Shown here in pieces: positions 39,564 to 59,166 of a stretch of DNA of 64,000 nucleotides; within the stretch, counting starts at the first letter, position 1, and the number at the start of each line of letters is the position of its first letter. The position numbers were made by a program, and so were the translations under genes. Source of the DNA: Alphaproteobacteria bacterium (GTDB taxonomy: Bacteria > Pseudomonadota > Alphaproteobacteria > CAAHEQ01 > UBA3637); assembly GCA_017539265.1 (NCBI GenBank), contig JAFYHG010000018.1, positions 8,779 to 72,778 on the forward strand. The letters run 5' to 3'. The notes below the pieces were generated by a model. That model was not told the DNA's origin and ran no database searches. It saw nothing but the letters and a program-made list of their open reading frames with translations.

Positions 39564-39566
39564 ATT

Positions 39567-42022: not shown

Positions 42023-42023
42023 A

Positions 42024-43476: not shown

Positions 43477-43938
43477 TCAAAGATATTTCAAAAGACGCCT
43501 TGTAATTATGGATTGCCCCTCTTCATAAAGTCTGTCAAGGTACAAGCGTTTCGTAACTCCGTCATTTAAGTCCGAAATATTCCTTATTAGATTATGGACA
43601 CAGTCTATGGAGGGTTTTCTGTGTTCACAAAGGAGCATTCCAAAATAGTACTTGTTCTTGTTCAGGAACTGTTCACTGAACTGGTACTGGCTGTCTATAT
43701 ATCCTAATTTGCGGAGGTACTTATAGCATTTAGTTATAAATTGAGCATCTTCTGTTTGGTCAGAGTAAGGGGGATTGGAGAGTTCATCTGCAACCTCTTC
43801 ATCGACATTTTTGGTGTTTTTAGGTGCGGGTGGCACAAGTTCCTCCGGTGTATTCAGATGCTTTCTGATTTTCCTCATATTTTCGGCAATATCTTCAAAA
43901 CTTACAATCATGAATAATTTCCTTTTAGTAATAGACAT
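43477..43938 (-). CDS. Hypothetical protein
   Basis: It is a 153-aa ORF at the left end of island 2. Confidence 0.35.
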   Translation of the reverse strand: MSITKRKLFMIVSFEDIAENMRKIRKHLNTPEELVPPAPKNTKNVDEEVADELSNPPYSDQTEDAQFITKCYKYLRKLGYIDSQYQFSEQFLNKNKYYFGMLLCEHRKPSIDCVHNLIRNISDLNDGVTKRLYLDRLYEEGQSIITRRLLKYL

Positions 43939-43988
43939 CTGTATTTATAAAGAAAATGATTAAAAAATGGAATTTTTTAAAAAAGATC

Positions 43989-44017
43989 TTGGCTTTTAAA
44001 ATGATCGGCTATATAGT
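43989..44017 (+). promoter_or_regulatory. Promoter cassette TTGGCT-17-TATAGT followed by CCCGGGCC
   Basis: A 40-bp motif (CTTGGCTTTT.AAA..ATCGGCT.TAT..TCCCGGGCC) is also present at 47185-47223. Confidence 0.45.
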
Positions 44018-44060
44018 CCCGGGCCCCGGGCAAGACTGGGGTAACTGAAAGGATAAAAAT

Positions 44061-44432
44061 ATGCTGGAACAACAAATGATACAAAGCGATAACCTGAATA
44101 CCATTATGGCAAATTGCTATGGCACAGAGAATTATTACACAAACAACTATTTGAAATACAATTACACAGACGGAATTAAAACTTTCTGTGAACAGGCATC
44201 CGCTTATTGGTTATTGAGCCTTATCCAAGGGGTTTATACAAAATATCCTCAAATGCGGAAAGATTTAATTGCTATAACACTAATGGTAAATGATGACAAT
44301 ACTGCCATTATTACCTTTACCGATGAAAAAGGTCAATTTTATAAGCAGCGTATTCCTTATACGGATTGTCCGGTAGGAGAATGGAAATTTTATTTTGAAA
44401 ACAATGTATTTTTCTGGAATGGAGAATATTAA
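44061..44432 (+). CDS. Hypothetical protein
   Basis: It is a 123-aa ORF, first of three overlapping genes downstream of the cassette promoter. Confidence 0.4.
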   Translation: MLEQQMIQSDNLNTIMANCYGTENYYTNNYLKYNYTDGIKTFCEQASAYWLLSLIQGVYTKYPQMRKDLIAITLMVNDDNTAIITFTDEKGQFYKQRIPYTDCPVGEWKFYFENNVFFWNGEY

Positions 44433-44865
44433 TATGAATAAAGAACAAATTAAAGAAGCAATATTAGGGAAAAAAGATTGTCATGGGGAAGAAACACCTC
44501 TCTGTCAATTTTCAACATTCCATCCGGATATGGAAATGGTGGAGATATTATTAAAAGGTGCGGATATTAATAAATCTTTTAATCACCAACCGATGGCATG
44601 GGTATTTCAATTCTGTGAACCGAATTGGGATGAAATGCTCACGCTTTTGTTCAAATACAAATACCATGCCTTACATCTGGACAGGAAAAGCGATTTTGAA
44701 AGTTTACTGCAACTTTTATCCAGAGTTAAACCGGAAACCGTGATGTATGTCTTAAAAATAATGAAGAAACATAGGTTTCGACCGACATTTGAACAGATTG
44801 ATTACATAAATAAATCAAAAGAGGATTTTAAAAAGGAGTTTAAATGGAAAGACTGGGTGAAATGA
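44395..44865 (+). CDS. Hypothetical protein
   Basis: It is a 156-aa ORF that overlaps both neighbours (translational coupling). Confidence 0.4.
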   Translation: MKTMYFSGMENINMNKEQIKEAILGKKDCHGEETPLCQFSTFHPDMEMVEILLKGADINKSFNHQPMAWVFQFCEPNWDEMLTLLFKYKYHALHLDRKSDFESLLQLLSRVKPETVMYVLKIMKKHRFRPTFEQIDYINKSKEDFKKEFKWKDWVK

Positions 44866-45317
44866 CAAAAGGTTTGTTAAAAGCAATCAATGAAAGGAAT
44901 TGGCGAGAAATTAAAAGGCTGGTTCACTTGGGCGGAAACTTAAATGCCGCTTACGATCCGTTTGGAAATACACCCTTTTTATATGCCATGCATATTTTTA
45001 AGAAAGCGGAAGAAATTGAACGCTTGATTAAATTAGGTGGAGATGTGACCTATAAAAACAGGGTGGGAAAAACAGCCTTGATGATAGCAGTTGAAAATGG
45101 GTGTGAACCGATAACGCCTTGGGTTATGGTGGATTATGGAGCGGACATTAATGCACAGGATGCATTGGGAAACACCGCCTTAATGATTTGTTTAGAATCC
45201 AGATTATATACCAAGAAACTGCTTTATGCCCTGATAGATTACGGGGCAGATTTAACCAACCTGAAGAATAAGGAAGGGAAAACAGCGTTTGATATACTAT
45301 ATGATGAATTAGAGTAA
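44844..45317 (+). CDS. Ankyrin-repeat protein
   Basis: It has at least 3 ANK repeats (GNTPFLYAMHI.., GKTALMIAVENG.., GNTALMICLE.., GKTAFDIL). Confidence 0.7.
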   Translation: MERLGEMTKGLLKAINERNWREIKRLVHLGGNLNAAYDPFGNTPFLYAMHIFKKAEEIERLIKLGGDVTYKNRVGKTALMIAVENGCEPITPWVMVDYGADINAQDALGNTALMICLESRLYTKKLLYALIDYGADLTNLKNKEGKTAFDILYDELE

Positions 45318-45336
45318 TCACTTTTGCGGAGAAGTG

Positions 45337-47076
45337 TTAACTAATCCGCAAATCTTTAATAGTTAATTCTTTGGTATTATTATCTTGGGGAAAATCTTTC
45401 CTGTCTTTTTCCCCAAAACCATATTCTTTTCGGCAATTTTCTAATTTGTTCCAGTCTTGCACACGATATGCATAAAGAGCAGATCGGGGATACATAATAC
45501 GCTTTCTTTGTCCAACAAAGGGGATTGATGTCTTGGTTCGTTTCTTTTTATCCGCCATCCTCTTTTTTGCTAACCAACTGATACTTTTTTCCAGATAACT
45601 TGCAGCAACTTTAGGTGACATCCATCCTGCATGAAGTGCATAACGGAGATGTGGTGATCCACTTGGTTTCCCTTTTCCTTCCAATCCCAAAGATGATATA
45701 ACGGATTGATAATTATGACTTAAAAGCATTTCCTTAAATACTTCTTTTTCTCGTTCTCTTTGGGGAGTGTTTTCATTAGTATACGCAATATTAGCGATTG
45801 TTGATTTATCACTTAAAGTGCATTCCTCAAAATCAAATCTCTTTAAGAAAGAAATATTCTCCAGAACAAGGTTACATCCCTCAAAAGAAGTCTGACTAAA
45901 GGAAACATCTCCCCCGAAAAGAGTGTTCCTTATAATAAAGTGCCGACTTCTTGGCGTTGCGTTAAACTTCAATTCTGAATTATTTAATAAAAAGGCACTA
46001 GATCTATTAAAAATACAGTTATGGATATAAAAACTTGTGTGAAATAAACTATTTCTAAAATCAAACTTACCATTTACAGTGCACTGCTCAAATGTTATAG
46101 CGTGCTTAATTTCCCTTGCGGGTGCAAAATCTTTCTCAAAGAAGCAATGATTAAAAGTGACTCTTGCTCTTATCGCATCATGGGGACAGACATAGTTAGC
46201 GGAAAATAGACAATCTTTGAAGAAAACACCTTCCATTGGATTAAATGCCCCATGAAAGCATATCAAATTCCAAAAGAATTCCTGCTCTTTTCTACCAAAT
46301 TCTACATTTTCTATTATAATAATAGAGCGACAATATTCGGAAGGAACTATTTTATATTGATGAGGTTTCTTGATTGTCTTGGTTGCCTGCGGGTGTTGTA
46401 GAAATACAATCTTATCTATTTCCTTTTTAATTTCAGGAGATTTGGTTTGTTCCGCCAGCATATAAAAAGGAGTACGGATTTCTTTCAAAAAGTCTGGATA
46501 CAAAACGGTTGGCAAGTGTTTTGTCAGTTGAACGGGTGAATTTCCAAACTTTTTGAACAGGTAAAGCAGTTCTCTTAAAAAATATCTGCCATTATTACCG
46601 ACTTTAGTTCTTATTCGTGCTAATGCTCCGACCATTCCTTTGGCATCTGCTAGGTCTTCAATATCTTGTGTTGTAATTTTGCCTCTTTTGTAATCATCTG
46701 TATCAATTTCAAAACAGGCAGAAAAGATATCTTGGAAGGTACGGATACATAACCTTAATGTTTGGTCAACACCTATTGGGTAATAATCGGGATGCGTAAA
46801 TGCATCAGGATATCCCTTCTCTGGTTGTTTTGTTTTAATGTATGTTTGTAAAATGTTTGGATAGACATCCGTCCAAAAATCTAAATTCAAAGATTTGAAC
46901 CGACCTTCTGGTCCATAGACCAGTTCTTCTTGGTAATCTTCATCTAAAAAAAAGTTTGGGCGTTCCAGTTTCATAAAAAACTCATATAAGTTGAAAAAGT
47001 TGGGGGGATTATACCACAAAATCTCCCAAAAGTCCAGAAGAACAAGAAATGTTAAAAAATCCATCTTTTTTAACAT
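45337..47076 (-). CDS. Pentapeptide-repeat-containing protein (candidate effector)
   Basis: The C-terminal half is rich in (F/L/C)-x-x-x-F/N pentapeptide-like units (FNHCFFEKDFAPA..FEGCNLVLENISF). The N-terminus and start are uncertain. Confidence 0.5.
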   Translation of the reverse strand: MLKKMDFLTFLVLLDFWEILWYNPPNFFNLYEFFMKLERPNFFLDEDYQEELVYGPEGRFKSLNLDFWTDVYPNILQTYIKTKQPEKGYPDAFTHPDYYPIGVDQTLRLCIRTFQDIFSACFEIDTDDYKRGKITTQDIEDLADAKGMVGALARIRTKVGNNGRYFLRELLYLFKKFGNSPVQLTKHLPTVLYPDFLKEIRTPFYMLAEQTKSPEIKKEIDKIVFLQHPQATKTIKKPHQYKIVPSEYCRSIIIIENVEFGRKEQEFFWNLICFHGAFNPMEGVFFKDCLFSANYVCPHDAIRARVTFNHCFFEKDFAPAREIKHAITFEQCTVNGKFDFRNSLFHTSFYIHNCIFNRSSAFLLNNSELKFNATPRSRHFIIRNTLFGGDVSFSQTSFEGCNLVLENISFLKRFDFEECTLSDKSTIANIAYTNENTPQREREKEVFKEMLLSHNYQSVISSLGLEGKGKPSGSPHLRYALHAGWMSPKVAASYLEKSISWLAKKRMADKKKRTKTSIPFVGQRKRIMYPRSALYAYRVQDWNKLENCRKEYGFGEKDRKDFPQDNNTKELTIKDLRIS

Positions 47077-47185
47077 TGCTTTTAAAGGATTTGAAAAATA
47101 AGGCTATTTTATTTTAACCTATATGCCCCAAATTATGAAATGTTTAATTTTAAAGAAAAAACTTATATTTTTTAACATTTAGGGC

Positions 47186-47214
47186 TTGGCTTTTCAAAAA
47201 ATCGGCTGTATGCT
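47186..47214 (+). promoter_or_regulatory. Second copy of the promoter cassette (TTGGCT-17-TATGCT)
   Basis: It lies inside the 5' extension of track ORF 47186-47839, which argues for the later start. Confidence 0.45.
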
Positions 47215-47257
47215 CCCGGGCCGCAATAAAAGTTCAATTTTAACGAAAGGATACAAA

Positions 47258-47839
47258 ATGGTTAATCAAGTTTTTATTGACGACAAGAAAATTAAAGACA
47301 TCTTAACTTACATTCAGGGGATGAGACATGCTGAAATGATACGGATGATGTTTTTATGTTCACTGAATGGCATGAGGTCTATAAATTTCGCCTATCTCCA
47401 AGTAGGTGATGTTTATACTCCCGACTTTAAGGTTAAGGATGTCATTTGTTTGGATGCGGATAAAAATAAAGGAAAGTTCGGGTGTTCGTATTATCTTAAC
47501 AGCCAAATGAAGAAAGAGTTTAAGGAGTATTTAGGGTATTTGAAGGCTAAAAATGAAGAGATTACGCCAGAAATGTATTTGTTTACCTCACAAAAGATGG
47601 GAAAACCTTTCAACCGTGTGTCAATTTCACGGATGTTCGCAACCGTTTACAAAAAGTTCAACATTGAAGGAGCATCACACTTGGGGCGACATTTGTTCGT
47701 GAGTCGGCTTATCAATGCTGGAACTAATATCTGTTTGGTTCAGAAACTCGCCAACCATCGCAACATTGGCACAACCCAACGTTATTTTAATTATAACGAG
47801 AAAATGCTCTCAAATGCTGTGGAAAATGTAGTTTTATAG
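47258..47839 (+). CDS. FimB/FimE-like small tyrosine site-specific recombinase
   Basis: The 193-aa catalytic-domain-only architecture matches FimB/FimE. It aligns block-by-block with E. coli FimB/FimE (..LGRHLFVSRL.., ..LANHRNIGTTQRY). The start is set at ATG 47258 after the RBS GAAAGGATACAAA. Confidence 0.7.
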   Translation: MVNQVFIDDKKIKDILTYIQGMRHAEMIRMMFLCSLNGMRSINFAYLQVGDVYTPDFKVKDVICLDADKNKGKFGCSYYLNSQMKKEFKEYLGYLKAKNEEITPEMYLFTSQKMGKPFNRVSISRMFATVYKKFNIEGASHLGRHLFVSRLINAGTNICLVQKLANHRNIGTTQRYFNYNEKMLSNAVENVVL

Positions 47840-47850
47840 CTGTGTGGTAG

Positions 47851-48113
47851 CCTAAAAGTGTATATAATTTTAAGTTATATCTCTTTTTCTTCTTCTTGAA
47901 TTAGAACATGTTCTAATCCACAGAGTATTTTATAGATTCCGAGGAATCTTGTTTGAACTAGTAATTTTTTTAGTTCTTTAAATTTAGCATGTATTTGTAT
48001 CAAAATTATTTTTTCTTTAAAAATTTGATTGGAATTTTTCATAGTAATATCCTTTCTTAAAAAAATAAGGGAACATTAAAGTCCCCATCTATTTCAACTC
48101 ATACACTTTTAGG
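47851..48113. repeat. Perfect 13-bp inverted repeat pair flanking a 237-bp segment (candidate invertible switch or MITE)
   Basis: CCTAAAAGTGTAT lies at 47851-47863 and its reverse complement ATACACTTTTAGG at 48101-48113. The interior is AT-rich and holds the palindrome TTAGAACATGTTCTAA (47900-47915) and a 55-codon ORF on the minus strand (47874-48042). Confidence 0.6.
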
Positions 48114-48161
48114 TATTACATGTTATTTAATGATTGCGCCAAGTGTTTGATGCATTTGTTT

Positions 48162-49130
48162 TTATGGTGTTTTTTGTAATTTCTTAAATTGGTAAAATAC
48201 AGATGCCGGCGAAACACCGAAATAGTCGCCAATTTGTCTAAAACTCATTCCAGCTGTTTTCATTCGTACCAATTGTTTGCTATCCACTTTAAAGTCTTCC
48301 CAGCCTTTATTTTTAACTAAATCAAATTTTTTTATAACCCTGTAGATACTCGCTGGATGGGCATTTACCTTTTTTGCAATTTCTTTTCCCGAAACACCAG
48401 AAAAATACAATTTTTTTATAAGTTCTTCCTGCTTTCCCAACCGACTATTCAATTTAATTTGATCAGGTGTCCGGGTTAATCCCATTTTTTTAATTTCTTG
48501 TTCAAGAAGTTTATGAGAGCATCCTAATTTTTCTGCTATAAAGGAAATGGATCTTCCTTCAGCAAACATCTCTTTTATCTTATCCTTTTTAAGGTCTAAT
48601 TTCTTCAGTTTAGGTGCTTCTAAATTATGTAAAAGAATGAAATTATACAATGTTGAATAGCAAACATTATATTTTTGTGCAATGGCTTTTCTAGAGACAC
48701 CTTTTAATAATAGGTCTTGTATATCATCTTTATAGTGGTCTATTCTGGTCCAGTTATGGCGAGGTTCTGGTTTTAACCCCAATAATCTTTGTTCTTCTAA
48801 TGTTTTTTTGCCTTTTTTATAGACCTGTATACGATCAAGTGATGCGACATAAATACCGCTTTCTTTTTCAAATTTTATGAGTGTTCTGCGGCATATTTTC
48901 AATTTTTTACAGATATCTTCACGCGTTAGCCCTAATTTATAAAAATGTTTTATTTTTTCGGGATTAAGTTTTATTTCCCGAGTATGTGGTTCTCTTTTCC
49001 ACCCTAAATCTTTTAGATAATTACGAAGGGTAGAAAGACTTATATTCATACGATCCGCTATCCCGCCCAAGGAAAGGTCAGATTTGTAGAGTTCTTTTAA
49101 TTTGTCTATATCTAGTTCAATTTTGTTCAT
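48162..49130 (-). CDS. Protein made of six tandem Hin/resolvase-type HTH (HTH_7-like) domains
   Basis: The translation shows six units of about 50 aa, each with a G(V/M/R)S...IA...(V/C)S..T(L/V)Y..(L/I)KK(L/F) pattern. Confidence 0.55.
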   Translation of the reverse strand: MNKIELDIDKLKELYKSDLSLGGIADRMNISLSTLRNYLKDLGWKREPHTREIKLNPEKIKHFYKLGLTREDICKKLKICRRTLIKFEKESGIYVASLDRIQVYKKGKKTLEEQRLLGLKPEPRHNWTRIDHYKDDIQDLLLKGVSRKAIAQKYNVCYSTLYNFILLHNLEAPKLKKLDLKKDKIKEMFAEGRSISFIAEKLGCSHKLLEQEIKKMGLTRTPDQIKLNSRLGKQEELIKKLYFSGVSGKEIAKKVNAHPASIYRVIKKFDLVKNKGWEDFKVDSKQLVRMKTAGMSFRQIGDYFGVSPASVFYQFKKLQKTP

Positions 49131-49146
49131 TTATGGGCGGATTTTC

Positions 49147-49174
49147 AAAAAAAGCGGAGTATTTCTACTCCGCT
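49147..49174 (-). terminator. Rho-independent terminator downstream of TAA gene (minus strand)
   Basis: It has the hairpin AGCGGAGTA-loop-TACTCCGCT. A T-run follows on the minus strand. Confidence 0.6.
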
Positions 49175-49234
49175 CACTTAAATTAACTAATAGGAAGGGA
49201 GACCGAGAAATCAGTCTCCCCGGAGTTCTTCGCA

Positions 49235-52200
49235 TTAGAATCCAAAAGTCACACCGACTTTGTAGGACACGCTGTCGTTGCCACCATAGGCAGCACCGGC
49301 GTTCAACAATGTCCGGTCGTTGAGATAATGGAATGCACCAACAGCCAAGGCTTGGTTGTTCTTGTATCCGCCCAAAGCCGCACTGACTTGCGTTTTGTGG
49401 ACATGATCCAGAGGAACAAGACCTGCCAAAGCGTTGTTAGCAGCTAACCCGTTTTCCATCTTGGTTTCTAACTTGTTGATACGGCGATCAACGCGGGCGA
49501 ATTCAGCACCCAAGTTATCATTCAAGTTGGTCAAGAGGTCAGAAATGCTTGACGGATCACCAACGGCTTGTGCACCAACAGCACCACCATTAGCTTGTTC
49601 TTTTCCTTTAAAGAACTTTAAGTTCTCTAAAGAAGACAAATCGCCAACAGTTTCATCAACGGCTTCAAAAGCAGATTCTGTAGCTGATTCTAACAATGCA
49701 ATTTGGTTATCTGTGTAAGTATTAGCATTGGCCTCAGCTGTATCAGCAGCACCATATGCATCATATGTATTAGCTGCAATAGCACCACTGATAGATGTAA
49801 TCTTACCATCTGTTTCAACGATGTTCAAAGACAAACCATCAGCACCTGCTGCTTGTGATACATTAGCATCTAAAGCATTAACTTTACCATCTGCGTAAGT
49901 CTTTGCATCAGCCAAAGCATTAGCAGCAGCACCATATGCATCATATGTATTAGCTGCAATAGCACCGCTGATAGCTGTAATCTTACCATCTGTTTGTGTA
50001 ATACTTAATGATAAGCCATCAGCACCGGCTGCTTGTGATACATTAGCATCCAAAGCATTAACTTTACCATCTGCGTAATTTTTGGCATTGGTTTCTGCTG
50101 TATTAGCATAACCTTTTGCTTGAGTATTCACATAAGTAACTGCTTCTGCAAGAGAACCAACCTGTTCGGTTGATACTTCTAAAGCGGTACGCATTGTATC
50201 CAGATTACCGACACGGCTATCAAGACCTTTGATTTGTCCATCTAAAACAATGTCAGCACCTGTCAATGTTGTTGCAGCTGTCAGGTAGTTTGTATCGGCG
50301 TATTCGTTGTTAACTGCATTCGAATTGGCCGAAGTAATACCCAATGTGTTATCAACCCATTGTTGTTTCTCGTTGAAGATAGCTTCTGCTTCTGTCCGTG
50401 TATAGACATCTGCGAGATTTGCTTTGTTAGCATCCAAAGCATCCAAAGCACCACGAACTGTTGTCGTTGAGCCTTCGCCTTGCTTTAACACAGAACCGTC
50501 TACAGCTTCTTCATCCGCATAGTTAACATCACCGATGGTGTCATTTGTGCCTTTGATTTGCGCATCCAAAACAATGTCAGCACCTGTCAAGGTTGTTGCA
50601 TCCGTCAGGTAGTTTGTGTCGGCGTATTCGTTGTTAACTGCATTCGCATTAGCCGAAGTAATACCCAATGTGTCATCAACCCATTGTTGTTTTTGTGCAA
50701 AGATAGCTTCTGCTTCGCTTCTGACACCGGCAACAGCCGTTGTAACAGCGGTATTAATCTTGCCATCAACAACTTTGCCCAATGAATCATCATAGGCCGC
50801 TACACTAGCCTCATGAGTAGCTGTATCAGTTGTGAAGTTAGTATTAGCTGTTTGCAATGATCCTTCCCAATTATTCAGGTTAGTTACTGTTGCTTGGTCA
50901 GTCGCCATGGTAGTAGCAATCTTATCCTTATTTGCAACGCTGTCATCATAGTAACCTTTTAATTCGGATTGTCTATTGGCCAGAGCCGTTACATCAGATT
51001 CGTAAGCATTAACTAGGTCTGCTTTGATACCTGCTGTAGTTGCATCATCTGCTGATACTGCTGTTCCATTTTTCTTTAAGACATAGCCATCTTCTGACGC
51101 TTCGATGGTATAATGGTCACCTGCAGTATTCGTCAATTCATAATTGGCAATATCAACACTTCCAGTTCCTGCGCTAGATGCAGTGATATCAAGTTTACCA
51201 CCTAAATCACTCGTCTGAACTGTATCTGTTAATTCTGCAACCGCTGTGCTACCTGCGACAGAAGTAGAATTACCATCTTTATCATATGTGACATATGTAT
51301 AATCATCGGCAGTCAGAGTACCACTATCATAGGACAGGTCGGCCACAGCAGAAATACCATCTACAGTAGCAGCTGCAGAAGTTGCAGTGTAATCTGCCGA
51401 TGTATAGGAAGCACCAGCGACTAAATCTGTGGGATTACCTTCTGGATCTGTAAAGCCATAATCCGCGGCATCCGGTGCATCACCAGGAGCGTTTGCAGAA
51501 ATGCTTGACACTTTATCAGACAATGTCTTCAAAGCAGTGTCCAAAGCGGTATCAGCACCCGTCAAGGTTGTTGCAGCTGTCAGGTAATTTGTTCCGGTGT
51601 ATTCGTCGTTAACTGCATTCGCATTAGCCGAAGTAATACCCAATGTGTTATCAACCCAGGTTTGCTTTTCGTTGAAGATAGCTTCTGCATTATCCCATAA
51701 TGTTCCCAAAGCGGTATCTGTATAGTTTTTCGCATAAGTCTTTGCATTTGCTTCAGCTGTATTCGCTTTCGTTGTTGCATCAGTAGCAGCGGCTGTAATC
51801 GCTTCGGATTTAGCAGTAGCAGCAGCACCATAAGCATCATATGTATTTGCAGCAATGCTACCAGAAATACCAGTAATCACACCATTTTCTTGAGTGATGC
51901 TCAAAGCCAATTGACCATTACCTGCGGCTGCAGCTTGAGTTTCTGTTGCATTCAAAGCATCAATTGCATCACCAACTGTTTTGCTCACAGAACCATCGCC
52001 TGTACCATTCAAGGTAGCAATAGCGCTCTCGTTTGTTGTGATTTTACCTACAAGAGTAGAAGTAATACCAGAGTTGACGGCAGCTAATTGTTCTGTTCCC
52101 AATTTTGCTTGGTATGTATTCGCCAAATCTAAAGCATCAATTGCATCACCAACTGTTTTGCTCACAGAACCATCGCCTGTACCATTCAAGGTAGCAATAG

Positions 52201-52726
52201 CATCTGCATTGGCTTTAACCTGTGTATCCAATAACTTATCTGCGCCAGCCATTGTTGTTGCGCCTGTCAGATAATTTGTACCGGTATACGCATTTGTTAC
52301 CCCAGTTGTTCCGGTGGATAAATCAACGCCCAATGTTTTCTGGGAAATGACACCACCTGTTAATTCTACAAAATCACCAACAGCAGTATTGACAACGGCA
52401 TAATCACCAGCATCTGAACTACCCGCTAGCAATTGTGCTAAAGCATCACGAGTGTATTTGGGGTGAGCCGCTGCAAAATCTGCATCAATGGTGTAATCTG
52501 TTCCACCAAGATTTGTAGTGTAGGTGTCTGTCCCCGTTGTGATGGCTGTATGAAAATTAGTTAAGTTTGTTGCAACTGAAGCAGTAGGGTCATAAGCCTC
52601 ATCTGCTGCCTTTGCACCTGTGGCAACGATTAAGCCCACTGCAAAGGCATTAAGCAGAAAACATTTCTTCAAAACACTACGGTATCTCGCAGAAAGTTCT
52701 CTGATTGTTGTTTTTGTATATTTCAT
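49235..52726 (-). CDS. Trimeric autotransporter adhesin (YadA-like), 1163 aa, island-encoded
   Basis: It has a signal peptide, a Thr/Ala/Gly-rich passenger domain with long internal repeats, and a C-terminal anchor (ALGGYKNNQALAVGAFHYLNDRTLLNAGAAYGG...VGVTFGF) homologous to the C-terminus of the 1-2417 gene. Confidence 0.8.
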   Translation of the reverse strand: MKYTKTTIRELSARYRSVLKKCFLLNAFAVGLIVATGAKAADEAYDPTASVATNLTNFHTAITTGTDTYTTNLGGTDYTIDADFAAAHPKYTRDALAQLLAGSSDAGDYAVVNTAVGDFVELTGGVISQKTLGVDLSTGTTGVTNAYTGTNYLTGATTMAGADKLLDTQVKANADAIATLNGTGDGSVSKTVGDAIDALDLANTYQAKLGTEQLAAVNSGITSTLVGKITTNESAIATLNGTGDGSVSKTVGDAIDALNATETQAAAAGNGQLALSITQENGVITGISGSIAANTYDAYGAAATAKSEAITAAATDATTKANTAEANAKTYAKNYTDTALGTLWDNAEAIFNEKQTWVDNTLGITSANANAVNDEYTGTNYLTAATTLTGADTALDTALKTLSDKVSSISANAPGDAPDAADYGFTDPEGNPTDLVAGASYTSADYTATSAAATVDGISAVADLSYDSGTLTADDYTYVTYDKDGNSTSVAGSTAVAELTDTVQTSDLGGKLDITASSAGTGSVDIANYELTNTAGDHYTIEASEDGYVLKKNGTAVSADDATTAGIKADLVNAYESDVTALANRQSELKGYYDDSVANKDKIATTMATDQATVTNLNNWEGSLQTANTNFTTDTATHEASVAAYDDSLGKVVDGKINTAVTTAVAGVRSEAEAIFAQKQQWVDDTLGITSANANAVNNEYADTNYLTDATTLTGADIVLDAQIKGTNDTIGDVNYADEEAVDGSVLKQGEGSTTTVRGALDALDANKANLADVYTRTEAEAIFNEKQQWVDNTLGITSANSNAVNNEYADTNYLTAATTLTGADIVLDGQIKGLDSRVGNLDTMRTALEVSTEQVGSLAEAVTYVNTQAKGYANTAETNAKNYADGKVNALDANVSQAAGADGLSLSITQTDGKITAISGAIAANTYDAYGAAANALADAKTYADGKVNALDANVSQAAGADGLSLNIVETDGKITSISGAIAANTYDAYGAADTAEANANTYTDNQIALLESATESAFEAVDETVGDLSSLENLKFFKGKEQANGGAVGAQAVGDPSSISDLLTNLNDNLGAEFARVDRRINKLETKMENGLAANNALAGLVPLDHVHKTQVSAALGGYKNNQALAVGAFHYLNDRTLLNAGAAYGGNDSVSYKVGVTFGF

Positions 52727-53005
52727 TAACTATACCTTTCTTTTTAATATTAAAATTAAAGTTACGAGGAGTTCTCTTTTTCAAAACCCTCGTCCGTCAT
52801 CTTACACAAATGTTCCTTTATGAAATGATTTGAAGAAAAGTGATAAAAATAGCATACTTTTGTCTTATATATTATTGTATTTTCAATATGTTATATTCAA
52901 TTTTAATTTTTTTAAAAAAAATGTTAAAAAATGTTTGCAATTTAAGGAACTATTTTTTGCATATGAAATTATCGGCAATAAATAACTTTAACAAAAGGAT
53001 ACAAA

Positions 53006-53617
53006 ATGGCAACTATCGCATATATCAGGGTTAGCAGCGATAAACAAACCTGTTCTAACCAACACTTTACGATTAAAGAATACACAAAATCTCACAATAT
53101 CCACATTGATAAATGGGTTGAAGAGACTATTTCCAGCAAGAAACCTTTGGAAAAGCGGGAATTAGGCGTATTATTAAATAAAATGGATAAAGGCAGTTTA
53201 TTAATTGTAACGGAAATCAGCCGTCTTGCCCGTAATCTATACGAATTGGCGGGCATATTGCAAAATGCTATTAAGAACGACATTACTGTTATTAGTATCA
53301 AGGAAAACTATCAGTTCAAAAATGATATCCAGTCCAAAATTATGGCATATACTTTTGGGCTTGCCGCAGAAATTGAGCGTGATTTGATCTCAACCCGCAC
53401 TAAAATGTCATTGGATAAATTAAAAAAGCAAAATGTTAAATTAGGCAGACCATTCGGGGCGGAGACAAAATGTTTAAAACTATCCAAAAACCGCAAGAAA
53501 ATAAGGGAATTATTAGGAAAAGGTGTCAGTCAGGCCAAAATATCCAAAATCCTTGGCGTCCACCCGACAACCATGTGCCGGTTCTTGAAACGAGTGGATG
53601 TGTCAACCTGTTCCTGA
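53006..53617 (+). CDS. Serine recombinase (resolvase/invertase family, Hin/Gin-like)
   Basis: It has an N-terminal catalytic motif (IAYIRVSSDKQ), a small resolvase-type catalytic domain and a C-terminal HTH (GVSQAKISKILGVHPTTMCRFLKR). Confidence 0.8.
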   Translation: MATIAYIRVSSDKQTCSNQHFTIKEYTKSHNIHIDKWVEETISSKKPLEKRELGVLLNKMDKGSLLIVTEISRLARNLYELAGILQNAIKNDITVISIKENYQFKNDIQSKIMAYTFGLAAEIERDLISTRTKMSLDKLKKQNVKLGRPFGAETKCLKLSKNRKKIRELLGKGVSQAKISKILGVHPTTMCRFLKRVDVSTCS

Positions 53618-53852
53618 TGGGAATGTTCCTCGCCAAAAGGCGGCTAACCACTTTGTTTTTGATCTTGTATGACGGCATCAGGCAGTTTAATCCCACTTAT
53701 TATACAAAAGCCCTCTATTTTAATCCCAAATAAAAGGAATCTATTATCAAATTCACCTCTATAATAGTTCTATTTTATTTCTATTATAATTCTATTATAG
53801 GAACAAAAAACACCCAGATAGGCCTTGTGTTTATTGGCGTTTCTCAAATTGT

Positions 53853-54060
53853 ACCGAACATAACAGTCTCCGCTACCGAACATATGGGCACCGGGAGCGA
53901 ACATATGAGCATCGCTAGCGAACATAACAGTCTCCAAAATTGCCCAAACCGAACATATAAGCATCGCCCCCCTAAAAAACGAACATATCAACCTCTAGCG
54001 AATAATTTTTTTGTAAATCGGTGAAATCCATCATCGAGCGAATAAATACCCCTGTAAATC
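53853..54060. repeat. Iteron-like direct repeat array (six (C/G)CGAACATA units at 21-31 bp spacing plus two degenerate GCGAATAA units)
   Basis: The repeats begin at 53853, 53875, 53897, 53918, 53949, 53979 and at 53998 and 54046. They are preceded by an AT-rich block of TCTATTATA/CTATAATAG 9-mers at 53750-53800. Confidence 0.6.
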
Positions 54061-54076
54061 AATTTTAGGAGGTTTT

Positions 54077-54589
54077 ATGAGTAAAAGTAAATCAGATTTG
54101 TCCCTCACAAAGCGTGTGTTGTTGGACTTTGTAAAATTTAAGACCCAAAACGGGCATCAATTCTTTGCGAGCAACGAGTATATTGCCAAAGGTTTAGATC
54201 TAACCGAGAATACTGCCAAGACATTTGTTAATGACCTTATAAGAGAAGGATACCTTTATAAAGAGATAGATAAGAGAGGCATGAGAATTTTATCCCTAAC
54301 CGGTAAGGAATACAAACCATTGTTTGAAGATTTGAGGAACTTTGATAAGAAAGTACTTAAAGAGGACAGAGATAACTTTCAAAGGGATAACAAATATTTG
54401 AACCAACAGTTAGAACAGGAAACAGCATATAAGGAACAACTATTAAACGAAAATACAGATTTAGTCCTTTCCAATGCTGAACTAACCCATCGTGTTCAGG
54501 AACTGGAAAAGAGAGTTACTGCTTTGGAGAACATCTTTTATAAAAATGGAATGACAAAGGAACAACTGGAGGATTTATTGAATAAATAA
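54077..54589 (+). CDS. Winged-helix DNA-binding protein with C-terminal coiled coil (candidate iteron-binding Rep/regulator)
   Basis: The N-terminal 85 aa are wHTH-like. The C-terminus has a heptad leucine pattern. A strong SD (AGGAGG) precedes it, directly downstream of the iteron array. Confidence 0.45.
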   Translation: MSKSKSDLSLTKRVLLDFVKFKTQNGHQFFASNEYIAKGLDLTENTAKTFVNDLIREGYLYKEIDKRGMRILSLTGKEYKPLFEDLRNFDKKVLKEDRDNFQRDNKYLNQQLEQETAYKEQLLNENTDLVLSNAELTHRVQELEKRVTALENIFYKNGMTKEQLEDLLNK

Positions 54590-54632
54590 AAATGTGGGCA
54601 TGCTTTCAACCACACTTCATAAAAATACACCC

Positions 54633-55022
54633 TCAACTCTCGTTGAGGGTTTTTGCTTGTTTCTGTTGATCCAATGCCCAATCCAGAATCTGTTTCCTTC
54701 GTTCAAAGGCATTCTCTTTCGGGAACTTTTCTTCATAGCGGTCAAGCATAGCGTAAAGCAAAAGTGAAGCAAACGGATTCTTGTTAAATGCGGCATAATC
54801 CCTGGCAGTCCAACCTCTATAATCCATATAATTCGGATTTGCTCCATGTTCCAGCAGATATTCAACAACCGTCAAGTCACCCGATAGCATACAACAAACT
54901 TGAAGTATTGATGACAATTGAGTGTTTATCGGTTGATTGATATCATCCAGTAGCGACACAACATACTTAACATCCTCAATTGTATCTACAAATACTTCAT
55001 CTTTATCTTCCTGATTTTCCAT
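54633..55022 (-). CDS. Ankyrin-repeat protein (short)
   Basis: It has an ANK-like unit (VVEYLLEHGANPNYMDYRGWTARDYAA). Confidence 0.5.
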   Translation of the reverse strand: MENQEDKDEVFVDTIEDVKYVVSLLDDINQPINTQLSSILQVCCMLSGDLTVVEYLLEHGANPNYMDYRGWTARDYAAFNKNPFASLLLYAMLDRYEEKFPKENAFERRKQILDWALDQQKQAKTLNES

Positions 55023-55606
55023 TTTTTGCCTCCGTTCTTTTGAAATCTAGTAAAAATTTAGCAACTGCCTTTTGATATTCAACCTTTTCCGGTTCTAGTA
55101 ACTCTTCGTATATATCTAGCAATTTCTCCAAAGTATCCTTTAATTTATCTTCGGGCGTATGCCTTAAAGTGAACTGAACCGCTTTTAATAAAGACATTCC
55201 CAACATTATTGCTCCTTTTCATCTCTGATGATCTGCTCCATGCATATTTTCATGGCATTTAATATTCTTTCTGCTATCATTTTGACTCCTTTATTTTAAT
55301 TCAAGGATATTTATCGGGGCGATTTCAAAATGGAATCATTTTCAAAAAACGAATCCTTTTTGAGCCGATTTGGGGGATTTTAGATTATTTTTGAAGAAAT
55401 TCCCCGAAAAAACATTCAAAAAAATACCCCCCTTTTTCATTTTTTTTACATCAATATCCATCAATATCGCCATTTTTACATCAATATAGATTCCCTTCAA
55501 AAAAAAGTTATTGCGGCAATTTTATTTCTGGATATTCTTTTGCTTACCAATGCGGGGTGGTCTCGCAAAGGTGCCAACAATCTAACGAAAAGAAAGGAAA
55601 TTAAAA

Positions 55607-56113
55607 ATGTTAGAAAATACAGAAAATCAAACCATGGAATCCTTTATGAGTTCCTTTGGGATTGTTCCCATGACAACCATTAAGGATGAAGGATTGCTTT
55701 CATTCGACAATTGCAAAGACAGAATTCTGAAAATGATTGAATTAAATATTCAGAACTTTAAGAACAATCTTTGGAACGAGAGAAATTACATGATGAAGAT
55801 GCTGGTTGACCTTGATCCAAAGCGTAATAAATCCATTTGCACAGTCCGTTTAGGCGGCAAAAGGGTTTATAAATGCAATTGTGAAACCTTAAACACACCG
55901 AGAAAAGTTGAATTTTTAACCAAGTTCTATGAAGGCGTTTCCAGAGGGTTCTTGGATAAAAAGATTACGGAATTCTGTGAACGACAGGTTGCTTTGGCAG
56001 AAGACCGTAAGAAAATCCAACGGGAAAAGCGTAAAGCACAAAGAAAAGCAGATCGTGAAGCCTTAAAAAAGCAAGAGGCTGAAGTGCAATCACATCAGCC
56101 CCACATTGCTTGA
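55607..56113 (+). CDS. Hypothetical protein with basic C-terminus
   Basis: It is a 168-aa ORF whose C-terminus is Lys/Arg-rich (KKIQREKRKAQRKADREALKKQEAE). Confidence 0.4.
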   Translation: MLENTENQTMESFMSSFGIVPMTTIKDEGLLSFDNCKDRILKMIELNIQNFKNNLWNERNYMMKMLVDLDPKRNKSICTVRLGGKRVYKCNCETLNTPRKVEFLTKFYEGVSRGFLDKKITEFCERQVALAEDRKKIQREKRKAQRKADREALKKQEAEVQSHQPHIA

Positions 56114-56356
56114 TTATTTAACAGAGAGTGGAAAACTGGAACTTTTTCACTCTCATAACCTAACAAAAGGAATTATACTATGACTGAAATTAAAAGTCAA
56201 ATAAAAATGCGTGATGTATTGCGGCAACTCCATCAACCGGAAGAGGTCTACAGGGAATATCTTTATAGTTCTGAAGATGAGCAAAGATTTTTAGAACATG
56301 TTGTGGACACAATTTTAACCAAGGGCTATATGCCGGCATAAGAAAGGAGGTAAAAG

Positions 56357-56926
56357 ATGAAAAATATTGAAGAGATGACCTTAAAAGAGGCAATAGACGA
56401 ATTATCAGAAATGCTTTTGGATTACTTGCCGGACAATGATGATAACGACAGATTTGAGGAACTATATGAAAAAATTAGAGAAGAAGTAGATGATATAGAT
56501 GTTGATACAAAAGATTTTATAGCACATGTGGAGTTTTATCCACTTGATGGAGATGAGATATATGAAACAGACACCAATATTATCTCTGGAGATTTTTTTG
56601 ATTGGCGGCATTCAAGTGACTTTGGTCCGCCAGCAGAAGCATGGCTCGCGGTTTTTAATGCCAGTCAGTGTTCACTTCAAAAAAAGTGTGCAACTTATCC
56701 TTTGGAAAAGATTCAAAAAGAATTGACAGATGATGTGTTGCAAAAGGTCTTCAAGGGACATGGTTTAGTAGATTTTAGATACCTATTGGCAAATCCTCGT
56801 AAGGATGTCGTGGGATGGGCATTGAAGCACAAGTATGAACTTAATTTCAGAGGTATACCACCAGAGTTCATAGAGGAGCGTCAGGCAATTCCTGAACTAA
56901 AGGAACTTATCTTAAAGACCTTATAA
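56357..56926 (+). CDS. Hypothetical acidic protein
   Basis: It is a 189-aa ORF with an Asp/Glu-rich N-terminal half and a good RBS (AAGGAGG). Confidence 0.4.
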   Translation: MKNIEEMTLKEAIDELSEMLLDYLPDNDDNDRFEELYEKIREEVDDIDVDTKDFIAHVEFYPLDGDEIYETDTNIISGDFFDWRHSSDFGPPAEAWLAVFNASQCSLQKKCATYPLEKIQKELTDDVLQKVFKGHGLVDFRYLLANPRKDVVGWALKHKYELNFRGIPPEFIEERQAIPELKELILKTL

Positions 56927-57006
56927 AAAAACAGAGCAAATTCCATAAAGGGCTTGACATTTGCGACCTGATCTGATCAGATCGCGATCCTTAAAAGGGA
57001 GAATGA

Positions 57007-58779
57007 ATGTCATACCACTATCCTGGACTGATTATATTATACGGGCAATTTTATATTAGGGTTAGAATACCCGCCTGTTTAAGAATGATCGCCAGATGCA
57101 AAGAGATAAGATATTCATTACAAACAAAAATCTATCAGGAAGCAATTGAAAAGTACCACGTGGAATTTGCTCATTTACAAGCATTTTTAACAATTTTTAA
57201 GGATATAATTATGAAAGTAAATGAGAATAAACAATTAACTTTAACTGAAACTGATGTGGACAAATTATTGCTCCACAGGTTAGAACAAATCCAAACCTTT
57301 TTGGAAAATAATGTAGATGAAATCAAGTCCCGACATAAGTCCGAGGCAGATATTATTTTGCTCTCAAGGGATAAAAAAGAAGCGGATATCCGCAAATTAA
57401 TGCAGGATATGATTTTGGGTTATTTGAAAGGACTGGTGGATAAAAATAAGGCAAATATCACTTTGCGGATGATTTACACTCAACTCAAAAATAAAGAGAT
57501 TGAGTTGGGGTTAGTGCAACAGGGGGAAAAATATGATTGGTTAAAAGCATTTTCCACCCACATTAACCATTTAGACCATTATGCCCAAAAATCTGTTAAG
57601 GCAATCCAAGAGGAAAAGCATTATGCCCCAACCAACCCAAAGGTTATAACCCTTTTGCGCACTTATGATTCCATGAAAACGGATGAGCGAATTCACTGTT
57701 CTATGGCAGCAACCCATTGGAAAAAGTTTTTCAAACGCTATCTGACGATGAAAAAGAATATTAAAGGGACATCTAATAAAAGGTTGTGTAAATTGGAGAA
57801 ATGTATTTGGTTAGCATTTGCACTTATGAAACGGGAGTATGTAGAAGATGTAACCAAACAGGATTGTCGCCAACTTTGCGAACTGATACATCGAGTTCCG
57901 AAACGGTGGCAAGAAAAAATTAGGGGAGATGATATTTTCCAAATTTTGACAGATAACCCTGAAAAGGCACTATCTAAAACAACCATTCAAGGATACTTAA
58001 CAGTATTTAAGGAGTACATGCGTTATGCTGAAAGAGAGGAGATTATTTCCAATAATTTGAATAGCGCAGTAGATGTACCTATCAATGTAAAACCATTTCA
58101 GCGAGAACCCTTTACAGCGAAAGATTTACACAAGATGTTTAATTCAGAAACATATATAGATCCCCGTATCAGAAAGGATTTACCCAAATTCTGGATACCA
58201 ATTATAGCCCTTTACCATGGTTGTCGTTTGAATGAAATCTGTCAATTGGATGTCAATGATATTGTGCAAGAAAAGGGAATACCTTGTATCAGCATTAATG
58301 CAAATGCCCCAGATAAATCCGTTAAAAATAAAGGATCTGAACGAATAATACCACTACATCCAAAACTAATTGAAATGGGATTTTTATATTATGTTGAATA
58401 TCAAAAACGAGGGCACAAACGAAAATTGTTTGACCTAAAACAGATTAAAAACGGGATGTATGGTAGTCCGGTCCAACATTGGTTTGCACGATATTTAGAT
58501 AGTATTGGGATAACGGAAACAACCAAAGTTTTTCATTCGTTCCGGCATACTTTTGAGACAATGGCAACAGAAAAGAGAATTCCCCCACAATATCAAAATG
58601 CAATTTGTGGGTGGACAGAACAAGGCATTGGACAAAGACTTTATGCCCACAAGAAGGACATGAACATTATGTTAGAAGAAATCAGCAAAATTAACTATCC
58701 AATCAATCGTGAACTGTCAGAACTAAAGAAGTCTTTCATGGATTCATTTGTTGTCAGGTCTTTAAGGGCAAATGGATAA
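57007..58779 (+). CDS. Tyrosine-type phage/island integrase
   Basis: The C-terminal catalytic motifs are present (..HSFRHTFETMA.. box II, GWT, RLYAHK). It lies adjacent to the tRNA gene. The true start may be an internal Met. Confidence 0.8.
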   Translation: MSYHYPGLIILYGQFYIRVRIPACLRMIARCKEIRYSLQTKIYQEAIEKYHVEFAHLQAFLTIFKDIIMKVNENKQLTLTETDVDKLLLHRLEQIQTFLENNVDEIKSRHKSEADIILLSRDKKEADIRKLMQDMILGYLKGLVDKNKANITLRMIYTQLKNKEIELGLVQQGEKYDWLKAFSTHINHLDHYAQKSVKAIQEEKHYAPTNPKVITLLRTYDSMKTDERIHCSMAATHWKKFFKRYLTMKKNIKGTSNKRLCKLEKCIWLAFALMKREYVEDVTKQDCRQLCELIHRVPKRWQEKIRGDDIFQILTDNPEKALSKTTIQGYLTVFKEYMRYAEREEIISNNLNSAVDVPINVKPFQREPFTAKDLHKMFNSETYIDPRIRKDLPKFWIPIIALYHGCRLNEICQLDVNDIVQEKGIPCISINANAPDKSVKNKGSERIIPLHPKLIEMGFLYYVEYQKRGHKRKLFDLKQIKNGMYGSPVQHWFARYLDSIGITETTKVFHSFRHTFETMATEKRIPPQYQNAICGWTEQGIGQRLYAHKKDMNIMLEEISKINYPINRELSELKKSFMDSFVVRSLRANG

Positions 58780-59089
58780 AAGGGCAAAGGTGTTCAAAAT
58801 ACATTTTAGGCAACCGTCATGGGAATCATATTAGGGTGTTCAAGCGGTAAAAAATCCAAAAGGTGAAATGGTATCAATGTCATCAAAAAGTTCGTGGCAA
58901 AAAGTTTAGGATGAAAGGGGTTGATGAAAGTGTTTTTGAATAGCCAGATAATGCTGAAAACTAGCTGTAAAAAGCACATGTCACAGAAGTCTTTGTGTCC
59001 AAGGATTGTGGCCAACCCCTGTGGCCAAGCAAAATCACCCTGTTTCAGGCACAAAAAAAGCCTTGATAAACAAGGCATTATTCTAAAAG

Positions 59090-59166
59090 TGGCGCGCCCG
59101 GCAGGATTCGAACTTACAACCTTCTGATCCGTAGTCAGATGCTCTATCCAATTGAGCTACGGGCGC
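59090..59166 (-). tRNA. tRNA-Arg (anticodon ACG)
   Basis: A 77-nt cloverleaf was folded by hand: acceptor GCGCCCG/CGGGCGC, D-arm GCTC..GAGC, anticodon stem TCTGA/TCAGA with loop CTACGGA, T-loop TTCGAAT, and a CCA encoded. The T-stem has one A-C mismatch. Confidence 0.8.

Follow-up and report, generated by a model that had tools for sequence, protein, structure and literature searches.

A winged-helix protein gene and its upstream iteron array in a tRNA-Arg island of an Alphaproteobacterium: a possible origin of replication with a small initiator

The DNA analysed here is a stretch of 64,000 nucleotides, referred to as the window, from contig JAFYHG010000018.1 (positions 8,779 to 72,778 of the forward strand) of an Alphaproteobacteria bacterium (assembly GCA_017539265.1), a metagenome-assembled genome of gut or rumen origin. 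The window carries a genomic island of 15.8 kb, island 2 (about 43272-59089), which is integrated at tRNA-Arg(ACG). One segment of this island, 53629-54650, holds an AT-rich block and six direct repeats (iterons) upstream of a gene for a 170-residue protein, which combines an N-terminal winged helix of the HTH_36 family with a coiled coil. This segment looks like a self-contained cis/trans maintenance module of the island, a reading drawn from the array upstream of the protein's own monocistronic gene being its only apparent target in the island. The features of the module, numbered from the first letter of the window, are as follows.

53629 to 53645, + strand: boundary hairpin or palindrome CTCGCC-AAAA-GGCGGC(T), CTCGCCAAAAGGCGGCT, at the left edge of the conserved backbone
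53669 to 53687, + strand: conserved box ATGRYGGC-N4-GGCAGTT, aligning in most loci regardless of iteron class
53714 to 53801, + strand: AT-rich block with five direct TCTATTWT units (53714, 53740, 53769, 53780, 53791), a candidate DNA-unwinding element (DUE)
53854 to 53871, + strand: iteron 1, CCGAACATAACAGTCTCC (exact match and position weight matrix, PWM)
53876 to 53893, + strand: iteron 2, CCGAACATATGGGCACCG (exact match and PWM)
53897 to 53914, + strand: iteron 3, GCGAACATATGAGCATCG (exact match and PWM)
53918 to 53935, + strand: iteron 4, GCGAACATAACAGTCTCC (exact match and PWM)
53949 to 53966, + strand: iteron 5, CCGAACATATAAGCATCG, 31 bp after iteron 4, a gap of 30 or 31 bp being kept in related loci where the arrays are clear
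53979 to 53996, + strand: iteron 6, ACGAACATATCAACCTCT, 30 bp after iteron 5
53998 to 54048, + strand: promoter-proximal boxes independent of iteron class, a T-run with TTG (54006-54015) and a near-invariant ATAAATA (54042-54048)
54067 to 54072, + strand: ribosome-binding site (RBS) AGGAGG
54077 to 54589, + strand: gene for the 170-residue winged-helix (HTH_36) and coiled-coil protein, a putative iteron-binding initiator (ATG at 54077)
54629 to 54650, both strands: bidirectional intrinsic terminator, common to the convergent ankyrin gene

Exact copies of the octamer CGAACATA occur on the + strand at 53855, 53877, 53898, 53919, 53950 and 53980, and these are all the copies in the window. The count by itself is weak, six having also been reached in 2 of 100 shuffled sequences; what stands out is the clustering, the analytic probability of finding six sites in 133 bp being about 7e-15. 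The starts of the units are separated by 22, 21, 21, 31 and 30 bp, which corresponds to approximately 2, 2, 2, 3 and 3 helical turns and places all six on one face of the helix, and since spacings of 22 and 31 bp are no multiples of three, the repeats are non-coding. A PWM built from the six iteron 19-mers scores these at 21.5-27.4 bits, and the next-best site in the window, on either strand, reaches 13.2 bits. No further iteron-like site was thus found anywhere in the island, which indicates that the HTH_36 protein is without another regulon. The 17-mer CGAACATAACAGTCTCC occurs identically in units 1 and 4 (at 53855 and 53919), and Tandem Repeats Finder reported a 21-nt period of 3.4 copies at 53855-53926. 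The iteron region gave no RNA structure signal (z = 0.19), and a scan with Rfam reported nothing but tRNA. A preliminary description of this DNA, made from the sequence alone, had listed six conserved direct repeats spaced at 21-31 bp, two of them within identical 17-bp units, and both observations were confirmed by exact matching, with the PWM and Tandem Repeats Finder also supporting the array. The two degenerate copies proposed to follow it (GCGAATAA, near 53998 and 54038) have to be abandoned, as they fall in the GAWAAT plus T-run and the ATAAATA boxes, which are the same whatever the iteron class and are therefore not iteron copies.

The AT-rich block lies about 50 bp to the left of the iterons and corresponds to the block of AT-rich 9-mers already described at this position. 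Five of the nine + strand copies of TCTATTWT in the window fall within 53714-53798, an inverted copy (CTATAATAG) is found at 53759, and Tandem Repeats Finder detected an 11-nt unit, TCTATTATAAT, in 3.8 copies at 53758-53799. With 79% AT, the block ranks in the top 0.5% of 91-nt windows. Only one duplex of the window is less stable than the 60-bp segment beginning at 53739, for which -59.7 kcal/mol was computed against a mean of -80.0 (standard deviation 6.3). The least stable one is an AT-rich region upstream of an adhesin gene, near 52866. Both the position and the sequence of the block are kept in every iteron class, relatives carrying 10-bp palindromes of the form TATTATAATA or CTTATATAAG, and an exact-pattern scan of viral contigs for the block gave no match.

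Between the array and the gene, the ATAAATA box is present in all 29 aligned upstream regions, in any iteron class, and is separated from the TTG box by 25-27 nt; a scan of the + strand from the iterons to the HTH_36 gene with the consensus sigma-70 pattern revealed no convincing promoter. The AGGAGG sequence followed by a gene with a winged-helix-like N-terminus and a leucine-heptad C-terminus, as first described, is an RBS at 54067-54072 preceding a reading frame for which the winged helix and long C-terminal helices have been recovered by the HTH_36 match and a structural model. The terminator at 54629-54650 makes the gene monocistronic. In three relatives belonging to different iteron classes (L009, about 5870-5985, L025 and L026), a conserved insertion of about 115 nt with the hairpin AAACAACCA...TGGTTGTTT occurs between the ATAAATA box and the RBS and is a candidate for a small mobile insertion or leader element.

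The 170-residue protein matches Pfam HTH_36 at 29.7 bits, above the gathering cut-off of 25. An AlphaFold2 model (mean pLDDT 76) places helices at residues 10-24, 33-39 and 44-56, followed by a beta wing at 60-74 and long helices at 87-125, 133-156 and 161-169. PHROG gave eight weak matches (E = 6e-5 to 7e-3), seven of them to replication initiators, O-like proteins or DnaD-like organisers, and the matches are mostly confined to the N-terminal winged helix. A search with the winged-helix profile against 1.84 billion representative proteins returned only 110 relatives. Among 71 remote relatives scanned, HTH_36 was detected in 55 and DnaD_N in 18, and a helicase, primase or DnaD C-terminal domain in none. 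The homologues have the C-terminal motif LENIFYKNGxSxEQLE in common, and their coiled coils vary in length through gain or loss of heptad-sized blocks (7, 21 or more residues); the window copy, at 170 residues, is the shortest homologue aligned. The protein family is a small one, comprising these Alphaproteobacteria and unannotated metagenome contigs, and its members have so far been annotated only as 'helix-turn-helix domain-containing' or 'hypothetical'. Searches of 72,556 PLSDB plasmids and 50,697 INPHARED phages with tblastn produced no match at E <= 1e-3, and relaxing the threshold to E = 10 with the winged helix alone yielded noise only, the best plasmid match having E = 0.3. IMG/VR held no relative of the protein, and searching PDB sequences with a profile of the family brought up nothing beyond coiled-coil noise and weak similarity to winged-helix or DNA-binding domains.

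Comparison with about 30 related islands, all from metagenome-assembled genomes (MAGs) of Alphaproteobacteria from human and ruminant guts and with proteins 40-92% identical, has revealed a common plan over the upstream 450 bp or so in most loci. It consists of the boundary element, an ATGGC-N4-GGCAGTT box, an AT block with TATTATAAT-type palindromes, a AAAAACACC box, four iterons at 21-22 bp, a fifth at 30-31 bp and a sixth at 31 bp, and then the T-run/TTG box, ATAAATA and the RBS. The arrays are degenerate or only partly recognisable in L014, L017, L033 and L029-L032. The iteron sequence itself is not conserved and varies together with four residues of the recognition helix (45, 46, 49 and 50), and within one locus the six units are closer to each other than to their positional counterparts in other classes. 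The combinations of helix and iteron core are listed below.

(N/S)TAKTF helix: iteron core GAACATA, in the window and about 11 loci
NTAKSF helix: iteron core GAATATATG, in L013
SSAKVF or GSAKVF helix: iteron core GGAAACAAC..TATCC or ..TTTCC, in 10 loci
NSAKTL helix: iteron core of GGCAATA or GGGTATATA type, poorly defined, in the degenerate arrays of L029-L032

These give at least four apparent specificity classes of iteron and recognition helix. The covariation constitutes strong in silico evidence that the HTH_36 protein would bind the repeats through helix 3, and the association between repeats and gene, whose absence from homologous islands had been named as grounds for rejecting the original proposal, is present: the repeats are found there and vary together with the gene. 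In L017 the HTH_36 gene is cut to 47 residues, the iterons are degenerate and a 168-residue gene of the backbone is missing, while L014 and L033 have an intact HTH_36 gene, degenerate arrays and no integrase detected in the DNA at hand; decay of the array thus goes along with decay of the island. In five MAGs with two or three copies, the co-resident islands differ in iteron class or one of the arrays has decayed, a pattern such as incompatibility would produce, although it has to be read with caution because it concerns binned contigs.

The outer part of the module is likewise recognisable in the relatives. The boundary hairpin occurs once in the window, 18 related loci each have a single exact copy, and L013 and L029 have a compensatory variant, CACC-AGAA-GGTG (CACC/GGTG in place of CGCC/GGCG); in about half of the loci, a different sequence replaces it. 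A T-run begins only about 9 nt past the stem, which indicates that the hairpin is not a canonical terminator, and its occurrence as one copy per locus rules it out as a cassette recombination site. For the palindrome, roles as an insulator, as a binding site for a protein or as an inverted repeat of oriT type are conceivable, and the box at 53669-53687 is possibly a site for a host factor. A nineteenth match to the hairpin, in L037 from the viral-contig scan, was rejected as a chance match in an unrelated GC-rich ParA-like coding sequence.

Around the module, the following features define the island and its nearest neighbour.

53006 to 53617, + strand: small serine recombinase (resolvase/invertase; Pfam Resolvase, E = 1.6e-29), outside the backbone
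57007 to 58779, + strand: tyrosine integrase (DUF6538 and Phage_integrase), adjoining tRNA-Arg
59090 to 59106: att core TGGCGCGCCCGGCAGGA, 17 bp, at the 3' end of tRNA-Arg(ACG) (59090-59166, minus strand), forming attR

The att core TGGCGCGCCCGGCAGGA recurs at 43255-43271, at the left end of island 2, and at about 38382-38398, at the left end of a second element, island 1, each copy having about 100 bp of similar flanking sequence. A conserved backbone extends from 53628/53629 through the integrase to the attR in tRNA-Arg, in the order iteron module, ankyrin gene (minus strand), small open reading frames, 168-residue gene and integrase. The similarity detected by blastn begins at 53628/53629 in L002, L008-L010, L012 and L032, and in most loci whose downstream DNA extends far enough the integrase is linked 3' of the module. 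Since the DNA to the left of 53629 is variable cargo, the module is where the backbone ends on its inner side. The cargo of the relatives includes restriction-modification genes, GmrSD, an OLD-like nuclease and Fic. No relaxase or type IV secretion system (T4SS) was found in the parts of the island scanned, no mob, tra or packaging genes were detected in the island, no phage genes were found there, and PADLOC reported nothing relevant on the backbone proteins. The preliminary idea of an integrated plasmid-like replicon is consequently misleading for an element that sits in tRNA-Arg, encodes a tyrosine integrase and has att cores of 17 bp, and that of a phage origin with repressor and operator finds no phage genes to accompany it.

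A second class-variable array is situated at 55430-55500, in the divergent intergenic region upstream of the operon of the 168-residue gene and the integrase. In the window it comprises three copies of (A)CATCAATAT at 55449-55489, and relatives have three or four tandem units of about 11 bp that differ from it, for example ATATATCGNA, ATATACCGTA, AATAAATCNA and AATGTCGTCA; an array at a like position was seen in L001, L002, L008, L010-L012, L020, L023, L024, L028 and L043. It is probably the operator of an excision/integration switch, bound by another specificity protein encoded on the island. As the integrase operon has this separate array of its own and the sole target of the HTH_36 protein lies upstream of its own gene, the HTH_36 protein does not appear to be the excision regulator. 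In the 5' leader of the 168-residue gene, just 5' of its RBS, a stem-loop GYRGGR-UGG-UCYYRC (about 55552-55568) shows compensatory changes across loci (GCGGGG/TCTCGC, GCGGGA/TCCCGC, GCAGGA/TCCTGT and GTGGGA/TCTCAC) and may be a regulatory RNA hairpin.

The serine recombinase next to the module had been taken as the res component of a rep-iteron-res organisation. A serine recombinase is indeed encoded at 53006-53617, and it is nearest to the NCBIfam Mpi DNA-invertase family (240.8 bits against a cut-off of 272). It is not an obligatory neighbour, however: among the loci with sufficient sequence 5' of the module, about two thirds have a + strand recombinase at a distance of 1.0-6.0 kb (L001, L006, L013, L014, L017, L022, L023, L026-L029, L031, L033 and L043), several loci have none upstream, and the gene is located outside the backbone. 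Where the distance is about 2.2-2.9 kb, the annotated examples are L001 and L006 only, and in these two (recombinase about 2.7-2.9 kb off) one minus-strand cargo gene stands between the recombinase and the boundary, coding for an OLD-like nuclease or a 542-residue protein. L002 has GmrSD at the backbone boundary and no recombinase. This arrangement suggests a hot spot for cargo insertion at 53629. No clear flanking inverted repeats or recombination sites that would indicate an invertible promoter were found for the serine recombinase.

Other genes of the region were recorded as well. The island cargo includes a YadA-like trimeric autotransporter adhesin of 1,163 residues (49235-52726, minus strand), the gene of which has internal repeats of about 180 and 167 nt, a 217-residue tyrosine recombinase (47186-47839) with 77% nucleotide identity in L001, and a 322-residue protein (48162-49130) built from several resolvase-type HTH_7 domains in tandem. 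The island further has genes for two ankyrin-repeat proteins, at 54633-55022 and 44844-45317; the former, convergent with the HTH_36 gene, is a backbone member in 26 of 33 loci. Island 1 (38382-43271) is a 4.9 kb element in tandem with island 2, with the same att core and end sequences homologous to those of island 2. It has neither an integrase nor an iteron/HTH_36 module and carries four minus-strand genes, one with MORN repeats. Island 1 looks like a non-autonomous deletion derivative that could be moved in trans by the integrase of island 2.

Iteron-controlled theta replicons such as pPS10, pSC101, F oriS, P1 oriR, RK2 and R6K combine AT-rich repeats, phased repeats of about 17-19 bp at intervals of about 22 bp, a promoter and an initiator gene. 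The module resembles them in the order of AT block, phased array, promoter region and gene, and in its classes of iteron and protein specificity. Compared with the usual description of iterons as at least three direct repeats of 17-22 bp at a spacing of about 22 bp, it has six units of 18-19 bp, and the segment 53714-53801 has the composition, the repeats and the computed stability of an AT-rich unwinding element. It differs in that no clear DnaA box was found and no inverted half-iteron operator is present, and in that the element sits in the chromosome and has no counterpart in the plasmid databases. Whereas the initiators of Rep_3, RepA, TrfA and pi replicons contain two winged helices (WH1+WH2), the window protein combines one winged helix with a coiled coil, and no Pfam or NCBIfam match to any of these families was obtained. 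For the rep-iteron-res organisation proposed earlier, this means that repeats, AT block and gene do form one conserved, covarying unit, the protein not being a member of the RepA, Rep_3 or lambda O families; the family comparison that had been suggested for the 170-residue protein gave a DNA-binding HTH_36 domain with PHROG replication matches and no assignment to RepA, Rep_3 or O.

Precedents for the domain are found among small plasmids. HTH_36 Rep proteins with an iteron oriV upstream of rep have been described for small alphaproteobacterial plasmids (PMC3832669, PMC6209633). The E. coli plasmid pKL1 (1,549 bp, Col(MG828) replicon) has a single annotated coding sequence, which encodes a 158-residue HTH_36 protein (RepA), making it plausible that a protein of this size can serve as the sole plasmid-encoded initiator. 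As in the window, pKL1 and the Paracoccus plasmids pAES1, pAES7, pMARC3, pMOS2, pYEE7 and pYEE8 have a small HTH_36 protein and repeats or Rep sites 5' of rep. The helix-turn-helix of pKL1 RepA is central and preceded by an N-terminal extension, while that of the window protein is followed by a C-terminal coiled coil, and where the window has six phased sites, the HTH_36 plasmids have two or three repeats, or inverted repeats. Weak matches also link the window protein to lambda O and DnaD-like organisers (PHROG 186, 428, 678 and 391), mostly over its N-terminal winged helix. Unlike these, the window protein is missing the C-terminal domain that binds the helicase loader, and its putative origin does not lie inside the gene. 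Neither a Phage_rep_O nor a DnaB_2 (DnaD C-terminal) domain was found, the gene is monocistronic rather than part of a phage operon, and no phage or viral homologue was found.

With respect to the element as a whole, SGI1 (PMC7433901) and PIME (bioRxiv 10.64898/2026.01.12.698999) are integrated mobilisable islands with an iteron oriV and repA, for which replication after excision has been experimentally established. The window island is similar in layout to the rep/oriV of SGI1, the repA-oriV of PIME and the phage satellites SaPI, PICI and PLE, all being integrated, encoding an integrase and carrying immune or defence cargo together with an iteron and AT-rich element; its integrase and tRNA att repeats enclose a module whose identity as rep and ori is presumed. 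No homology of the backbone to SGI1 S004 rep, PIME repA, alpA or mob/tra genes was detectable. The initiators of these elements belong to known RepA or helicase families and are accompanied by recognisable mobilisation or packaging genes, whereas the putative initiator described here belongs to a new small family.

A phased array, an adjoining meltable AT block, a gene transcribed away from both and a helix-turn-helix family that includes initiators together make up the classical layout of an iteron origin. The interpretation of the module as an iteron-type oriV with a minimal HTH_36 initiator, serving replication of the tRNA-integrated island after its excision, is judged to have about an even chance of being correct. 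It builds on the anatomy of the locus, its conservation, the covariation, the uniqueness of the target, the duplex stability of the AT block and the membership in HTH_36. From these we infer DNA binding, melting, the recruitment of host replication proteins and an episomal state of the module. In the mechanism proposed, oligomers of the HTH_36 protein, linked through the coiled coil, would bind the six same-face iterons by means of helix 44-56. The resulting nucleoprotein complex would bend the DNA and melt the TCTATTWT block about 50 bp leftward, where host DnaA, DnaB and primase would assemble. After integrase-mediated excision, the island would then replicate as a circle, as in SGI1 and PIME. 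Binding beside its own promoter would also allow the HTH_36 gene to be autoregulated, and divergence of the iteron/helix classes may have created incompatibility groups, allowing several islands per genome.

Several observations weigh against such an origin. No circular form was found, terminal overlap being absent in four whole contigs, nor did the tblastn search of PLSDB uncover a plasmid-borne copy, and all loci with enough context, including that of P0029 and P0117, are chromosomal with an integrase nearby. Full-length homology to an HTH_36 Rep protein was not obtained, as the hhalign comparison with pKL1 RepA gave a probability of 6% over 35 columns, within the helix-turn-helix only, and beyond this domain the protein, which has a single winged helix, gave no sign of homology with Rep_3, RepA, TrfA, pi or lambda O. 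The structure matches are generic, with MarR and LexA scoring equal to the N-terminal domain of DnaD. Candidate DnaA boxes reach only 7 of 9 matches (TTATACAAA in the window, TTATCAAC in relatives) and are not consistently conserved. A coiled coil that varies by heptads would be as fitting for a structural, bridging protein as for an initiator, and the AT block, being conserved in sequence and containing TATAAT-like palindromes, could be a promoter or a protein-binding site and not a DUE. Finally, the copy-number argument drawn from the MAGs rests on binned contigs.

Some of these points lead directly to other explanations. The bridging capacity of the coiled coil is at the centre of a single-protein segregation or tethering function, in which the array would be centromere-like and the protein would bridge or anchor excised circles or pair the copies. 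The analogy is with Par of pSK1, a protein with a helix-turn-helix, a coiled coil, DUF536 and a membrane-binding tail, whose gene is preceded, at 20-120 bp, by five or more direct repeats (PMC11500499). The window protein shares the combination of helix-turn-helix and coiled coil, and the direct repeats 5' of its own gene, but this is an architectural resemblance only: hhalign gave 1.6% for the two proteins and DUF536 is matched by Par and not by the window protein. The pSK1 par gene is, moreover, divergent from a RepA_N rep gene on a plasmid, while the window gene is located in an island. No partner NTPase is present, segregation would be pointless without a replicating episome for which no other origin has been found, the conserved and meltable AT block next to the array would be left unexplained, and the sequence-family signal favours initiators, so that a segregation function seems unlikely. 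A purely regulatory role would make the protein an autoregulated repressor or activator, immunity-like or MarR-like, with the six repeats as its operators and no part in replication or transfer. The best structure matches are to the MarR/MepR and LexA repressors, the array lies 80-225 bp 5' of the protein's own start beside conserved promoter-proximal boxes, TATAAT hexamers in the AT block could be a promoter, and the diversification into classes is like that of phage immunity groups. Yet a regulator whose sole island sites are 5' of its own monocistronic gene would regulate only itself, to no evident purpose, and the integrase operon has its separate and different array. Six sites in the same orientation over about 143 bp are also atypical, as MarR and LexA operators are palindromes overlapping the -35/-10 region, and the joint decay of array and backbone speaks against regulation alone, which is regarded as an improbable account of the module.

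Transfer rather than replication would be served if the segment were an origin of transfer (oriT) with a relaxosome accessory protein, the boundary hairpin or AT block holding the nic site for a helper relaxase and the iteron-bound protein acting in the manner of TraM. F TraM binds multiple sites upstream of its own gene (the sbm sites), and its C-terminal oligomerisation domain contacts the coupling protein. An island with no relaxase or T4SS in the parts scanned is what would be expected of a mobilisable island. The inverted repeat with compensatory changes and a conserved ACTTTGTT about 9 nt further on has the layout of an inverted repeat plus nic site, and an AT block kept across iteron classes would fit a common helper relaxase. 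On the other hand, the region contains nothing recognisable as a known nic consensus, the oriT accessory proteins that are known mostly belong to the ribbon-helix-helix type and not to HTH_36, about half of the loci have another sequence at the position of the hairpin, and neither a helper element nor a relaxase has been identified. The phasing of the iterons at 21-22 bp beside an AT-rich block is, furthermore, the classical layout of an oriV, and an oriT is accordingly considered quite unlikely.

The origin with a small initiator can be extended to the relatives as a whole. This would be a previously undescribed family of minimal initiators of about 170-190 residues, each combining a single HTH_36 winged helix with a coiled coil that varies by heptads, and acting on a stereotyped 4+1+1 iteron origin for the post-excision replication of tRNA-integrated islands with defence and adhesin cargo in uncultured Alphaproteobacteria of gut and rumen. 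Co-diversification of four recognition-helix residues with the iterons would have given rise to incompatibility groups, so that several islands, tandem ones among them, can coexist in one genome. This broader proposition is advanced tentatively, with a likelihood just short of even. Of interest are the small putative initiator, the natural covariation series and the implied episomal phase of these islands.

If the module is an origin, a new and very small initiator family would be added to the repertoire of iteron replicons, and islands of gut Alphaproteobacteria carrying restriction-modification systems, GmrSD, OLD-like defence genes and a 1,163-residue adhesin would have a replicative episomal phase, which would affect both the spread of the islands and the binning of metagenomes. 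Genetic tools, which this lineage lacks, could be based on the 1-kb module as their replicon. The matched variants of iteron and recognition helix provide a natural data set for the DNA-recognition code of winged helices. Under the segregation or transfer explanations too, the locus would represent a clean case of a cis site apparently co-evolving with the protein that binds it.

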